Assembly: GCF_041886205.1 (NCBI RefSeq)
Contig: NZ_CP169029.1
Source of the DNA: Escherichia coli
GTDB taxonomy: Bacteria > Pseudomonadota > Gammaproteobacteria > Enterobacterales > Enterobacteriaceae
Length of the DNA: 64,000 nt
Direction: 5' to 3' (one strand)
Below, one piece after another: positions 5,259 through 62,057 of the stretch. Position 1 is the first letter of the stretch. Each line of letters begins with the position of its first letter. Below the pieces are notes generated by a model. The model did not search any database. It saw only the letters and a list, made by a program, of their open reading frames with translations, and was not told the origin of the DNA. The translations under genes and the position numbers were made by a program.

Positions 5259-5407
5259 TTATTCAGCAAACGGCAACTTTTATAACCAGTGTAAAAATAA
5301 CGTGCCGCAATAGTCATACCTATTAATGGTAAAAAGCTGTCACAATTCATAAAAAACCTTAATATACGCCACCCTAAACATAACCAGCGTTAATGTAAGG
5401 TTTTTGT

Positions 5408-7614
5408 GTGGACTGGCTTCTTGATGTTTTTGCTACCTGGCTCTACGGCTTAAAAGTAATCGCGATAACGTTAGCGGTCATCATGTTCATCAGTGGGCTG
5501 GACGATTTTTTTATTGATGTCGTCTACTGGGTACGCCGCATTAAACGCAAGTTGAGTGTTTATCGCCGCTACCCGCGAATGAGTTACCGCGAACTGTATA
5601 AACCAGATGAAAAACCGTTAGCGATTATGGTTCCGGCGTGGAATGAAACGGGCGTCATCGGCAATATGGCCGAGCTGGCGGCGACCACGCTCGACTATGA
5701 AAACTATCATATCTTTGTTGGCACCTACCCCAACGACCCCGATACTCACCAAACGTGCATAAGGTAGTCTGCGCGCGTCCTGGCCCCACCAGCAAAGCCG
5801 ACTGCCTGAACAACGTGCTGGACGCCATCACCCAGTTTGAGCGTAGCGCCAATTTCGCTTTTGCTGGTTTTATTCTGCATGACGCCGAAGACGTAATTTC
5901 ACCGATGGAATTGCGTCTGTTCAACTATCTGGTCGAGCGTAAAGATCTGATTCAAATCCCGGTATACCCATTCGAACGCGAATGGACGCACTTCACCAGC
6001 ATGACTTACATTGATGAGTTTTCAGAACTGCATGGCAAAGATGTTCCGGTGCGTGAAGCCCTCGCCGGACAGGTGCCCAGCGCAGGCGTCGGTACTTGTT
6101 TCAGCCGCCGCGCCGTGACCGCACTGTTAGCTGACGGTGACGGTATTGCTTTCGACGTGCAGAGTCTTACTGAAGATTACGACATTGGTTTCCGCCTGAA
6201 AGAAAAAGGTATGACGGAAATTTTTGTCCGTTTTCCGGTGGTGGACGAAGCCAAAGAACGCGAGCAGCGTAAATTTTTACAGCACGCGCGGACGTCAAAC
6301 ATGATCTGCGTGCGCGAATATTTCCCCGATACCTTTTCGACTGCGGTTCGACAAAAATCTCGCTGGATCATCGGCATTGTTTTCCAGGGCTTTAAAACCC
6401 ATAAATGGACCTCCAGCCTGACGCTGAACTACTTTCTCTGGCGCGACCGCAAAGGGGCAATCAGTAACTTTGTCAGCTTCCTCGCGATGCTGGTGATGAT
6501 CCAGCTTTTGCTGTTGCTGGCGTATGAAAGTTTGTGGCCCGATGCCTGGCATTTCCTTTCTATTTTTAGCGGCAGCGCATGGTTAATGACCCTGCTGTGG
6601 CTAAACTTTGGCTTGATGGTTAACCGCATCGTGCAGCGAGTGATTTTCGTCACTGGCTACTACGGCCTCACGCAGGGCCTGCTTTCCGTCCTGCGTCTTT
6701 TCTGGGGCAACCTGATTAACTTCATGGCCAACTGGCGCGCGCTAAAACAGGTACTCCAACACGGCGATCCACGTCGCGTCGCGTGGGATAAAACAACGCA
6801 TGACTTCCCCAGCGTGACTGGCGATACCCGCTCGTTGCGCCCGTTAGGCCAAATTCTGCTGGAAAATCAGGTCATCACTGAAGAACAACTCGATACAGCA
6901 CTGCGTAATCGCGTCGAAGGTCTACGCCTGGGCGGTTCAATGCTGATGCAGGGGCTGATTAGCGCCGAGCAGCTGGCACAGGCGCTGGCAGAGCAAAACG
7001 GCGTGGCGTGGGAATCCATCGATGCCTGGCAGATCCCTTCCTCGCTGATTGCCGAAATGCCGGCCTCCGTGGCGCTGCATTATGCGGTACTGCCGCTGCG
7101 TCTGGAAAATGATGAGTTAATTGTCGGCAGTGAAGATGGTATTGACCCGGTTTCGCTGGCGGCCCTTACGCGTAAAGTCGGACGCAAAGTGCGTTACGTC
7201 ATTGTTCTGCGGGGACAAATTGTCACAGGGTTACGTCACTGGTATGCACGCCGACGCGGTCACGATCCGCGGGCAATGTTGTACAATGCGGTTCAGCATC
7301 AGTGGCTCACGGAACAGCAGACCGGTGAAATCTGGCGGCAATATGTGCCGCATCAGTTCCTGTTCGCCGAAATACTGACCACGCTCGGTCATATTAATCG
7401 TTCAGCAATTAACGTGTTGTTATTGCGCCATGAACGCAGTTCTCTGCCGCTCGGCAAGTTTTTGGTCACCGAAGGCGTTATCAGCCAGGAAACGTTGGAT
7501 CGCGTCCTGACAATTCAACGCGAATTACAAGTTTCGATGCAATCACTATTACTCAAAGCAGGTTTAAACACAGAACAGGTTGCGCAACTGGAGTCCGAAA
7601 ATGAAGGAGAATAA
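5408..7614 (+). pseudogene. nfrB: nfrB (inner-membrane glycosyltransferase, phage N4 receptor component) disrupted by a frameshift
   Basis: Two overlapping ORFs in different frames (5408..5767, 119 aa; 5755..7614, 619 aa) together cover a GT2-type glycosyltransferase. Frame 2 stops at TAG 5765-5767 right after ...YPNDPDT; the protein resumes in frame 1 at ...NVHKVVCARPGPTSKADCLNNVL. Expected single product is about 745 aa (from memory). Confidence 0.75.
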
Positions 7615-10573
7615 CCTTAATCGCGTCATCGGATGGTCTGGTTTACTGCTGACGTCTTTATTGAGTACCAGCGCACTCGCAGACAATATCGGCACCAGCG
7701 CAGAAGAGCTGGGGCTGAGCGATTATCGCCATTTTGTTATTTATCCCCGTCTCGATAAGGCGCTGAAGGCACAGAAAAATAACGACGAAGCAACCGCCAT
7801 CCGCGAATTTGAATATATACACCAGCAGGTGCCGGATAATATTCTGCTGACTTTATACCTTGCGGAAGCCTATCGCCATTTTGGTCATGATGACCGGGCG
7901 AGGCTGTTGCTTGAGGATCAACTGAAACGTCACCCAGGAGATGCCCGACTTGAGCGCAGTCTGGCGGCTATTCCGGTTGAAGTGAAAAGCGTTACAACTG
8001 TTGAAGAACTGCTTGCCCAGCAAAAAGCGTGCGATGCTGCGCCGACCCTGCGTTGTCGCAGTGAAGTCGGGCAGAATGCCCTGCGGCTGGCACAGTTACC
8101 TGTCGCCAGAGCGCAACTGAACGATGCGACGTTTGCTGCATCGCCGGAAGGAAAAACGCTGCGAACCGATCTGCTGCAACGGGCAATCTACCTGAAACAA
8201 TGGTCACAGGCAGATACGCTATACAATGAAGCACGCCAGCAGAACACATTAAGCGCGGCAGAACGCCGTCAGTGGTTTGACGTGCTTCTTGCCGGGCAGC
8301 TGGACGATCGGATCCTGGCACTGCAATCACAGGGGATCTTCACCGATCCTCAGTCATATATTACTTACGCGACCGCGCTGGCTTATCGTGGCGAAAAAGC
8401 ACGCCTCCAGCATTATCTCATTGAAAATAAGCCGCTGTTTACCACGGACGCACAAGAGAAAAGTTGGCTCTATCTGTTATCTAAATACAGCGGCAACCCC
8501 GTTCAGGCATTGGCGAATTATACGGTGCAGTTTGCCGATAACCGCCAGTATGTTGTTGGCGCGACGCTACCGGTGCTGTTAAAAGAAGGTCAGTACGACG
8601 CAGCGCAAAAACTGCTCGCCACCCTCCCCGCCAATGAAATGCTTGAGGAGCGTTATGCTGTCAGCGTGGCGACCCATAACAAGGCTGAAGCTTTGCGTCT
8701 GGCACGATTGCTGTATCAGCAAGAACCGGCAAATCTTACCCGCCTGGATCAACTGACCTGGCAACTGATGCAGAACGAGCAGTCACGCGAAGCTGCCGAT
8801 TTATTGCTGCAACGCTATCCTTTCCAGGGCGATGCGCGTGTCAGCCAGACTTTAATGGCGCGACTGGCGTCTCTGCTGGAAAGTCATCCTTACCTGGCAA
8901 CGCCGGCGAAGGTGGCGATTTTATCGAAACCCTTACCGCTGGCGGAGCAACGTCAGTGGCAAAGTCAGTTGCCGGGTATTGCAGATAATTGCCCGGCAAT
9001 AGTTCGCTTGCTGGGCGATATGTCGCCTTCCTACGATGCTGCCGCCTGGAACCGTCTGGCAAAGTGTTATCGGGACACGCTACCCGGTGTGGCGTTGTAT
9101 ACATGGCTTCAGGCCGAACAACGACAACCGAGCGCCTGGCAACATCGTGCGGTAGCCTATCAGGCGTATCAGGTTGAGGACTACGCCACCGCACTGGCGG
9201 CCTGGCAGAAAATCAGTCTTCACGACATGAGCAATGAGGATCTGCTTGCTGCTGCCAATACCGCCCAGGCGGCAGGAAATGGTGCGGCTCGCGATCGCTG
9301 GCTACAACAGGCAGAACAACGTGGACTGGGAAGCAATGCCCTCTACTGGTGGCTGCATGCACAACGTTACATTCCTGGTCAGCCGGAACTCGCACTGAAC
9401 GATCTCACGCGCTCAATCAATATTGCGCCTTCTGCCAACGCTTACGTTGCGCGGGCGACAATTTATCGCCAACGTCATAATGTCCCGGCCGCGGTGAGTG
9501 ATTTGCGCGCCGCGCTGGAACTGGAACCGAATAATAGCAACATCCAGGCAGCGCTTGGTTACGCCTTGTGGGATAGCAGTGATATCGCACAGTCGCGGGA
9601 AATGCTCGAACAGGCGCATAAAGGGCTTCCGGACGATCCGGCACTGATCCGACAACTGGCCTACGTGAACCAGCGTCTGGATGACATGCCTGCGACGCAG
9701 CACTACGCCCGGCTAGTGATTGATGACATTGATAATCAGGCGCTGATAACCCCACTGACCCCAGAGCAAAATCAACAACGCTTCAATTTCCGCCGTTTGC
9801 ATGAGGAGGTCGGTCGCCGCTGGACGTTCAGTTTCGATTCTTCTATCGGCTTGCGTTCCGGGGCAATGAGTACCTCTAACAATAATGTTGGCGGCGCAGC
9901 GCCAGGGAAAAGCTATCGTAGCTACGGGCAACTGGAAGCCGAGTACCGCATCGGACGCAATATGCTGCTGGAAGGCGACCTGCTCTCAGTTTATAGCCGC
10001 GTCTTTACCGATACCGGAGAAAACGGGGTGATGATGCCGGTGAAAAATCCGATGTCCGGCACCGGTCTGCGCTGGAAGCCGCTGCGCGATCAGATCTTTT
10101 TCCTCGCCGTCGAACAGCAGTTGCCGCTGAACGGGCAAAATGGCGCATCCGATACCATGCTGCGCGCCAGCGCCTCATTCTTTAATGGCGGCAAATACAG
10201 CGACGAATGGCACCCGAACGGTTCAGGCTGGTTTGCCCAAAACCTGTACCTCGATGCGGCGCAATATATCCGCCAGGATATTCAGGCGTGGACGGCAGAT
10301 TATCGCGTCAGCTGGCATCAGAAGGTAGCTAACGGACAGACTATTGAGCCTTACGCTCACGTTCAGGACAACGGCTATCGTGATAAAGGCACTCAGGGCG
10401 CGCAGCTTGGCGGAGTCGGGGTCCGCTGGAATATCTGGACCGGCGAGACGCACTACGACGCCTGGCCGCACAAAGTCAGTCTCGGCGTCGAGTATCAACA
10501 TACCTTTAAGGCGATTAATCAACGTAACGGAGAGCGCAACAACGCGTTTCTCACCATTGGAGTGCACTGGTAA
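7601..10573 (+). CDS. nfrA: Outer membrane protein NfrA (phage N4 receptor, TPR-containing)
   Basis: ORF 7580..10573; internal start at 7601 gives MKENNLNRVIGWSGLLL with signal peptide and about 990 aa; overlaps the nfrB stop. Confidence 0.85.
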   Translation: MKENNLNRVIGWSGLLLTSLLSTSALADNIGTSAEELGLSDYRHFVIYPRLDKALKAQKNNDEATAIREFEYIHQQVPDNILLTLYLAEAYRHFGHDDRARLLLEDQLKRHPGDARLERSLAAIPVEVKSVTTVEELLAQQKACDAAPTLRCRSEVGQNALRLAQLPVARAQLNDATFAASPEGKTLRTDLLQRAIYLKQWSQADTLYNEARQQNTLSAAERRQWFDVLLAGQLDDRILALQSQGIFTDPQSYITYATALAYRGEKARLQHYLIENKPLFTTDAQEKSWLYLLSKYSGNPVQALANYTVQFADNRQYVVGATLPVLLKEGQYDAAQKLLATLPANEMLEERYAVSVATHNKAEALRLARLLYQQEPANLTRLDQLTWQLMQNEQSREAADLLLQRYPFQGDARVSQTLMARLASLLESHPYLATPAKVAILSKPLPLAEQRQWQSQLPGIADNCPAIVRLLGDMSPSYDAAAWNRLAKCYRDTLPGVALYTWLQAEQRQPSAWQHRAVAYQAYQVEDYATALAAWQKISLHDMSNEDLLAAANTAQAAGNGAARDRWLQQAEQRGLGSNALYWWLHAQRYIPGQPELALNDLTRSINIAPSANAYVARATIYRQRHNVPAAVSDLRAALELEPNNSNIQAALGYALWDSSDIAQSREMLEQAHKGLPDDPALIRQLAYVNQRLDDMPATQHYARLVIDDIDNQALITPLTPEQNQQRFNFRRLHEEVGRRWTFSFDSSIGLRSGAMSTSNNNVGGAAPGKSYRSYGQLEAEYRIGRNMLLEGDLLSVYSRVFTDTGENGVMMPVKNPMSGTGLRWKPLRDQIFFLAVEQQLPLNGQNGASDTMLRASASFFNGGKYSDEWHPNGSGWFAQNLYLDAAQYIRQDIQAWTADYRVSWHQKVANGQTIEPYAHVQDNGYRDKGTQGAQLGGVGVRWNIWTGETHYDAWPHKVSLGVEYQHTFKAINQRNGERNNAFLTIGVHW

Positions 10574-12408: not shown

Positions 12409-12453
12409 AGGGCAAAGCGGAAACGGATAAGACGGGCATAAATGAAGAAGAAA

Positions 12454-12530
12454 TGGCGCGCCCTGCAGGATTCGAACCTGCGGCCCACGACTTAGAAGGT
12501 CGTTGCTCTATCCAACTGAGCTAAGGGCGC
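12454..12530 (-). tRNA. argU: tRNA-Arg (anticodon UCU)
   Basis: Minus-strand 77-nt sequence GCGCCCTTAGCTCAGTTGGATAGAGCAACGACCTTCTAAGTCGTGGGCCGCAGGTTCGAATCCTGCAGGGCGCGCCA with cloverleaf, UCU anticodon and encoded CCA. Confidence 0.9.
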
Positions 12531-12561
12531 GTTGATACCGCAATGCGGTGTAATCGCGTGA

Positions 12562-12589
12562 ATTATACGGTCAACCCTTGCTGAGTCAA
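12562..12589 (-). promoter_or_regulatory. Candidate sigma70 promoter for argU
   Basis: On the minus strand: TTGACT, 16-nt spacer, TATAAT, about 30 nt upstream of the tRNA 5' end. Confidence 0.45.
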
Positions 12590-12772
12590 TGGCTTTTGAT
12601 CTGGTTGCTGAACAAGTGAACGACCGCGTCTGATTTTCTGATTTATTTCGCTATAGCGGCAAACAAACACACACCGCTGCGCGTCTGAATCAAGAAAACC
12701 CGTATTTTCATGTATCAAAGTACAATTTACCGCCCTAACGGAAAATTGTCCGCTCCTATGAGACTGGTAACT

Positions 12773-47260: not shown

Positions 47261-47485
47261 ACAGCTATGTTGGCGATACAATCCCGACGCTAGTAGTGAT
47301 ACTGCCTCAAGGGATTACCGCAGTGCGGAAAAGTACTTTTAAGTCCTGGTCAGGATACAGGTGGTGCTGATTCTGGTGCTCTAATTTGGAGAGAGGCAGT
47401 CCTCATCTAGCACATGAAGAAAATCATAGTTACAGGCAACGTAAGGGTAAGCTGTGATTGTCTTTCTCCCTTAAGGGAGCAACGG

Positions 47486-47569
47486 ATGAAAACTTTTCTC
47501 GATAAAGTTCTCATCGTTCTTAAGGCGCTAATCGCGCTGCTGGAACTGATCCGTCAGTTTATTGAATAA
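47486..47569 (+). CDS. Candidate type I toxin, 27-aa hydrophobic peptide (DinQ/ZorO/TisB-like)
   Basis: ATG preceded by AAGGGAG with 7-nt spacing; product MKTFLDKVLIVLKALIALLELIRQFIE is a single amphipathic helix closely resembling DinQ as I remember it (shared ALIALLELIR); followed by a hairpin terminator. Below the ORF-track size cutoff. Confidence 0.6.
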   Translation: MKTFLDKVLIVLKALIALLELIRQFIE

Positions 47570-56216: not shown

Positions 56217-56624
56217 TCACCCTGCCCGATGATGACAGCAGCCGGAGAGATTTTCGATAATCGGGCAGTCGGCGCTGTCATCGCCAGGGCAGGCATTCGC
56301 CAGTGCCAGCAGCTGGTCGCGCATGGATTGCAGCTCCTCAATGTGTCGTTCGATCTCCGCCACCTTCTCCAGCGTGCGCCGTTTGACGTCGGCGCTGTGC
56401 CGCTGCGGGTCGTTAAACAGATTCACCAGCTCGCCGCTCTCTTCCAGGTTAAAGCCCACCTGCCGTGCCTGGCGCAGTAAGGTCAGTTCGTTGAGATGCT
56501 GCTGCGTGTAGGTGCGATAACCGTTTTCGCTGCGCATCGGCGGCGTCACCAGCCCCTTCTCTTCATAGAAGCGAATGGCTTTGCTGGTCAGGCCGGTAAT
56601 TTTTGCTACATCGCTGATGTTCAT
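56217..56624 (-). CDS. cueR: MerR-family copper-responsive regulator CueR
   Basis: 135-aa [28 protein letters not shown]... with C-terminal Cys metal site. Confidence 0.9.
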
Positions 56625-56748
56625 CGTTCGCGCAACGCCTCCTGTGCTTTGTTAAAGGGTTTCAACAGATATTCAAGCACGTTTTTTTGCCAGTGCGAAT
56701 ATCGACCGCCACCACAATAATACAGGAAGTACTGCGCACAGAGAGATG

Positions 56749-61742: not shown

Positions 61743-61799
61743 GTACGTCATTGCGGATGCGCTGCTTTAGAGCGGCGCATTTGGCATCGACGCATGACT

Positions 61800-62035
<236 letters not shown>

Positions 62036-62057
62036 GAGATGAAGCGATGTTTTGGCC

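Follow-up and report, generated by a model that had tools for sequence, protein, structure and literature searches.

The original genetics of the Nfr system is reportedly the work of Kiino and Rothman-Denes. In laboratory K-12, strains without NfrB or NfrA are not lysed by phage N4, and NfrB variants mutated in the glycosyltransferase (GT) domain (D169A, D267A and W330A) fail to complement (Junkermeier and Hengge, 2021; PMC8669469). The same model was reached by Sellner et al. (2021; PMC8669472), in whose work the product was named NGR and a ΔnfrB strain also showed full or partial resistance to Vequintavirinae, phi92-like and Enquatrovirus phages. These knock-out and active-site mutants, which are N4-resistant and make no NfrB-dependent exopolysaccharide (PMC8669469; PMC8669472), share with the locus described here the gene, the nfrBA-ybcH operon, the loss of GT2 function and an intact NfrA, however, the phenotype was measured there whereas here it is predicted from sequence, and the lesion here, a frameshifting deletion of 31 bp, arose spontaneously in wild isolates. 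Natural counterparts have also been noted, as nfrB or dgcJ is disrupted by an insertion, a deletion or a premature stop codon in some Escherichia coli strains, all B strains included (Sellner et al., 2021; PMC8669472). Those lesions in natural and laboratory strains are events of the same kind as the one described here, in that the NGR pathway is inactivated at nfrB, although allele and lineage differ. Beyond that remark of Sellner et al. (PMC8669472), a literature search for described nfrB pseudogenes returned nothing specific.

The window, by which we mean the whole 64-kb stretch of E. coli DNA that was analyzed, has the gene order cusCFBA / cusRS / nfrB / nfrA / ybcH / envY, the same as MG1655. 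The position of the broken gene (cusRS-nfrB-nfrA-ybcH-envY) and its DNA, 98.6-100% identical to annotated nfrB (98.6% against MG1655), identify it as nfrB, in agreement with the name given to it in an earlier, sequence-only reading of this DNA. A single uninterrupted frame of about 745 aa, required of functional NfrB, is not present, the break falling at codon 114. Judged from its reading frames, nfrB here is a pseudogene, and not a functional member of the c-di-GMP-activated GT2-MshEN exopolysaccharide synthases. The coordinates of the locus are collected in Table 1.

Table 1. Features of the nfrB locus, numbered from the first base of the window
Feature	Position	Strand	Remarks
nfrB pseudogene	5408..7614	+	whole former CDS, 2207 nt vs 2238 nt; 100% match to NZ_AP045833.1 nfrB
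N-terminal ORF, 119 aa	5408..5767	+	GTG start; residues 1-113 + 6 out-of-frame (HQTCIR), TAG 5765-5767
Deletion junction	5748..5749	+	31 bp (GCGTGATGTTGACGAAGTGTGCGCTCGCTTC) absent between both bases; from alignment
Downstream ORF, 619 aa = NfrB residues 127-745	5755..7614	+	DxD, TED, QxxRW motifs, TM helices, MshEN domain
nfrA, intact, 990 aa	7601..10573	+	overlaps nfrB stop by 14 nt; own GGAG 7 nt upstream of ATG
ybcH, intact, 296 aa	10574..11464	+	last gene of nfrBA-ybcH operon

Much of the sequence-only reading stands: the two ORFs into which it had split the gene and the stop codon between them are present, the stretch PNVHKVV can be read only in the second frame, and the nfrA frame that it had called intact runs uninterrupted. 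The C-terminal end of the 119-aa ORF reads ...YPNDPDTHQTCIR / ...GTYPNDPDTHQTCIR. The 619-aa ORF begins with a GTG that is the V127 codon of the intact protein, has the N-terminus VHKVVCARPGPTSKADCLNNVLD and ends at the normal stop. Its frame carries HDAEDV (DxD), LTEDYD (TED) and QKSRW (QxxRW), the motifs being those defined for NfrB (PMC8669469). The native nfrB start sits in a GUGUG context (window 5405-5411, tttttGTGTGGAC). Initiation at AUGUG/GUGUG sequences is the subject of a paper that is said to mention nfrB.

Alignment to intact nfrB, the check that the sequence-only reading had proposed, reveals one clean 31-bp gap relative to ET201 and MG1655, at window 5748/5749. The lost segment, GCGTGATGTTGACGAAGTGTGCGCTCGCTTC, corresponds to codons 114-124 (QRDVDEVCARF). 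The gap was read directly against orthologous DNA whose flanks are 98.6-99.9% identical, and the question of a chance result therefore does not arise. As 31 bp amounts to 10 codons plus 1 nt, the lesion shifts the frame as well as deleting a short internal stretch. This is the favored interpretation of the sequence-only reading, whereas the single-base indel that it had left open is excluded, as 31 bp are missing. The other genomes examined are single-frame, with the 31 bp present. From the native start, the frame now yields 113 native and 6 aberrant residues and then a stop. When the 31 bp are restored in silico, a 2,238-nt ORF of 745 codons results, whose product differs from K-12 NfrB by one residue (A649T) and whose sequence lies 2 nt from ET201. 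A restored ORF so near to both K-12 and ET201 indicates that nfrB has no other lesion.

The break lies in a sensitive part of the protein. On an intact orthologue, Pfam places PF13641 at residues 70-332, PF13632 at 165-382 and MshEN (PF05157) at 542-628; as the GT2 domain PF13641 spans residues 70-332, the break at 114-124 falls inside the catalytic domain. It parts the start of GT2, together with the hydrophobic segment at the N-terminus, from the DxD, TED and QxxRW motifs. For the 619-aa piece, Glyco_tranf_2_3, Glyco_trans_2_3 and MshEN are recorded in Pfam, and for the 119-aa piece no Pfam match is recorded. A search for a solved NfrB structure gave PDB matches for the MshEN region only (PilF/PilB/MshE) and nothing meaningful for the GT domain alone.

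The junction shows 0 bp of microhomology and no significant hairpin spans the deleted segment (DNA fold -4.6 kcal/mol, z = +1.04), so that no mutational mechanism is evident. The deleted 31 bp are unique sequence, without a repeat or an invertible element at the switch point. A phase-variable, reversible locus was considered and rejected on these grounds: the sequence is unique, there is no flanking repeat, and neither microhomology nor a significant hairpin is found at the junction. A deletion without a flanking repeat cannot revert in the way a phase-variable switch does.

One could suppose that the 119-aa piece and a reinitiated 619-aa piece together form an active or partly active synthase, or that the 619-aa piece alone keeps a role in binding c-di-GMP or partnering NfrA. 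The geometry for this exists, as GTG 5755 precedes the TAG (5765-5767) by 10 nt, an arrangement that can allow termination-reinitiation, and the 619-aa ORF, which is conserved exactly on 105 contigs, keeps the DxD, TED and QxxRW motifs and the MshEN domain. However, the duplex energy with the anti-Shine-Dalgarno (anti-SD) sequence, computed for the 20 nt upstream of start codons, is +0.3 kcal/mol for GTG 5755, compared to -3.9 for the native nfrB start, -5.9 for nfrA and ybcH and a window-wide mean of -2.1. By this measure no Shine-Dalgarno sequence precedes GTG 5755, and none of the next six in-frame start codons after it does better than -3.3 kcal/mol. A restart at GTG 5755 was thus given no support by the anti-SD energies. 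Against a working split enzyme it also counts that the start of GT2 (PF13641 from residue 70) and the N-terminal hydrophobic segment are cut off from the remaining catalytic domain, and that 13 residues (114-126) are missing from both pieces. In the carrier ERR13624319, an extra 1-nt loss in an A5 run breaks the 619-aa ORF again, into 152 and 467 aa, as expected of a decaying pseudogene; this loss may be further decay or a homopolymer error. That the 619-aa ORF is still open in most carriers could mean constraint, but a recent origin explains it equally well. Overall, a split but functional NfrB seems improbable to us. Low-level synthesis of the 619-aa ORF by reinitiation at GTG 5755, giving a truncated c-di-GMP-binding membrane protein that could act as a local c-di-GMP sink or as a partner of DgcJ or NfrA, is conceivable from the frame but carries a similarly small probability.

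A sequencing or assembly artefact, with the 31 bp and an intact nfrB in the actual genome, is the alternative that had been raised in the sequence-only reading. A megablast search with window 5400-7620 as the query was run against 5,426 complete E. coli genomes. The nfrB/nfrA locus was matched in 5,092 of these, while 334 had no nfrB match and a further 61 were covered at <80%. Among the matches listed, all but one align in two pieces (2,252 bp in the record vs 2,221 bp in the query). The exception is NZ_AP045833.1 (strain wlxctx60, from the faeces of an Asian black bear in Japan), which aligns in one piece at 100% identity and whose nfrB is called a pseudogene, 'frameshifted', in RefSeq (PGAP). 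A 48-nt junction probe, with 24 nt from each side, likewise found wlxctx60 only. An artefact would fit this rarity, the junction being seen in just 1 of 5,426 complete RefSeq genomes. However, the window is itself a second genome carrying the allele, distinct from wlxctx60: over the 64 kb the two have the junction in common but differ by 10 SNPs (577, 3896, 9101, 29816, 33939, 39722, 48975, 55744, 59528 and 61771) and one homopolymer indel (T7 vs T8 at window 63477).

That the lesion is authentic is argued from its recurrence in independent assemblies. Exact copies of the 119-aa product are found on 123 public contigs and of the 619-aa product on 105; looked up with an initial M, the exact 119-aa sequence occurs in 139 blocks of a public assembly collection. 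Carriers include the Logan assemblies of SRR27876928, ERR10124709 and ERR13624319 and the NCBI assembly GCA_000303635.2, which by its source names (EKI55117.1, EKI55116.1) is E. coli N1. The 48-nt junction is present in all four of the carrier loci that were fetched, on at least four SNP haplotypes, and the N1 contig (JH965297.1) is identical to the window over the 6,360 nt compared. The junction and the exact truncated proteins thus recur across runs and pipelines (Logan, NCBI, ENA) on differing SNP backgrounds. In addition, sequencing platforms do not typically drop 31 bp from sequence that is neither repetitive nor a homopolymer, and the junction has neither a hairpin (z = +1.04) nor microhomology. 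An artefact is therefore very unlikely. Because carriers differ by flanking SNPs, the allele appears to be inherited within a clade; the comparison of assemblies indicates that the deletion is rare but genuine, and that the clade is small and slightly diversified. The lesion is disabling relative to intact orthologues and reproducible in independent sequence data, which is the mark of a pseudogene.

Programmed recoding, by which a -1 shift between the junction and the TAG would give a near-full-length NfrB minus about 10-11 residues, is very improbable. In its favor, the junction-to-stop distance is only 18 nt, and two rare codons, ATA and AGG, come last before the TAG. However, a -1 (or +2) shift is needed and CAC CAA ACG TGC ATA AGG TAG (5747-5767) holds no X XXY YYZ heptamer. 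The other genomes examined are single-frame with the 31 bp and the junction is in 1/5,426, so that the arrangement is derived, a lesion rather than a recoding site kept by conservation. The product would still be without 11 residues of the GT2 core.

With no Shine-Dalgarno sequence before the downstream ORF and no slippery site, a null allele is the best reading. We put the probability at roughly 90% that this is a genuine 31-bp nfrB deletion of single origin, inherited by a small clade and null in effect. On this null-allele reading, the deletion would have arisen once in the GT domain and been passed down in a clade that includes N1, wlxctx60 and several independently sequenced isolates. The frame shift would end translation from the native GTG after the 113 native and 6 aberrant residues, and residues 127-745, lacking a ribosome-binding site, would most likely not be made in useful amounts. 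The expected outcome is that no NfrB polymer (the NGR glycan) is made, and that phage N4 and other NGR-dependent phages would fail to adsorb although the outer-membrane partner NfrA is intact. Furthermore, about 1.85 kb of untranslated nfrB mRNA may lower nfrA/ybcH expression via Rho-dependent polarity. For this strain, N4 resistance and loss of the c-di-GMP-dependent NGR glycan are predictions that we infer from K-12 genetics (PMC8669469; PMC8669472), and O-antigen or capsule could already block N4 in this lineage even with an intact nfrB. Among the pathway genes surveyed, namely nfrB, nfrA and dgcJ, the last in the sister genome wlxctx60, where it is annotated intact, nfrB carries the only lesion seen.

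The deletion is not the only way in which nfrB has been broken; inactivating alleles of the gene are common. The nearest allele that keeps the 31 bp, that of ET201 (NZ_CP100994.1), has a W11* mutation (TGG>TAG) at 6039-6041, corresponding to window 5438-5440, which PGAP hides by a 728-aa 'intact' NfrB CDS starting at ATC, codon 18 (6060). By its sequence, W11* is a second, independent nfrB lesion in a nearly identical background. The 90%-identity cluster of the 119-aa fragment holds 177 distinct N-terminal NfrB fragments. Two alleles were checked in place, namely Q114* (CAG>TAG), on 142 contigs and with loci 25 or 41 nt from K-12 nfrB, and E119* (GAA>TAA), on 85 contigs and with loci 39 or 28 nt from K-12 nfrB. 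The Q114* codon falls at about window 5747-5749 and the E119* codon lies within the deleted segment. Each of the two occurs on nfrB backgrounds more than 10 nt apart, which suggests recurrence or recombination. Like the deletion, W11*, Q114* and E119* truncate NfrB inside its first 119 codons, and gene callers turn the long ORF that remains downstream into a 619- or 626-aa protein; however, they are point nonsense mutations, whereas the deletion allele cannot revert by a single base change. Q114* and E119*, together with the 31-bp deletion, hint at repeated natural loss of NfrB. The coexistence of widespread nulls (W11*, Q114*, E119* and the deletion) may mean that the NGR glycan is still being selected against in nature, whether through phages or through its cost.

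Both this kind of event and the deletion allele itself are already known, the latter having been flagged by PGAP and deposited since the N1 assembly, and as a lineage-specific pseudogene of a gene in a phage-receptor pathway the finding is ordinary. It leaves knowledge of the Nfr system unchanged, and its value is practical and modest. The 619-aa fragment is in GenBank as a separate protein (EKI55116.1, GDH08118.1, PAU29642.1) under the names 'type II secretion system (T2SS), E, N-terminal domain protein' or 'GSPII family protein', which misname the fragment on account of its MshEN domain. With both pieces of nfrB deposited as separate GenBank proteins and one of them mislabelled, this annotation needs correcting. 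Carriers of the allele (N1, wlxctx60 and relatives) are predicted non-hosts for N4-like and NGR-dependent phages (Vequintavirinae, phi92-like) and have an intact-looking nfrA. Genome-based prediction of phage host range must check the integrity of nfrB and not its mere presence. The deletion also serves as a clean clade marker.

Several features elsewhere in the window were also observed. Directly after envY, the interval from the envY stop to fimZ (window 12409-12772) holds an argU-type tRNA-Arg at about 12454-12530 on the minus strand, followed by fimZ. ET201 and MG1655 have the DLP12 prophage and ompT downstream of envY; here both are missing, so that in this lineage the DLP12 site is empty and the locus encodes no OmpT. 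Between ybbP and mnmH, a small CDS (47414-47569) is annotated 'damage-inducible type I toxin DinQ'; K-12 presumably has an RhsD element at this position, which appears absent here. A 98-nt remnant between ybaT and cueR (56621-56718), a frameshifted, partial 'hypothetical protein' in RefSeq, is the only pseudogene-flagged feature in the 64-kb window besides nfrB. Finally, the ybaQ-copA intergenic region (61799-62036) contains 2.4 tandem copies of a 101-bp unit, 98% identical, with REP/BIME-like palindromes.
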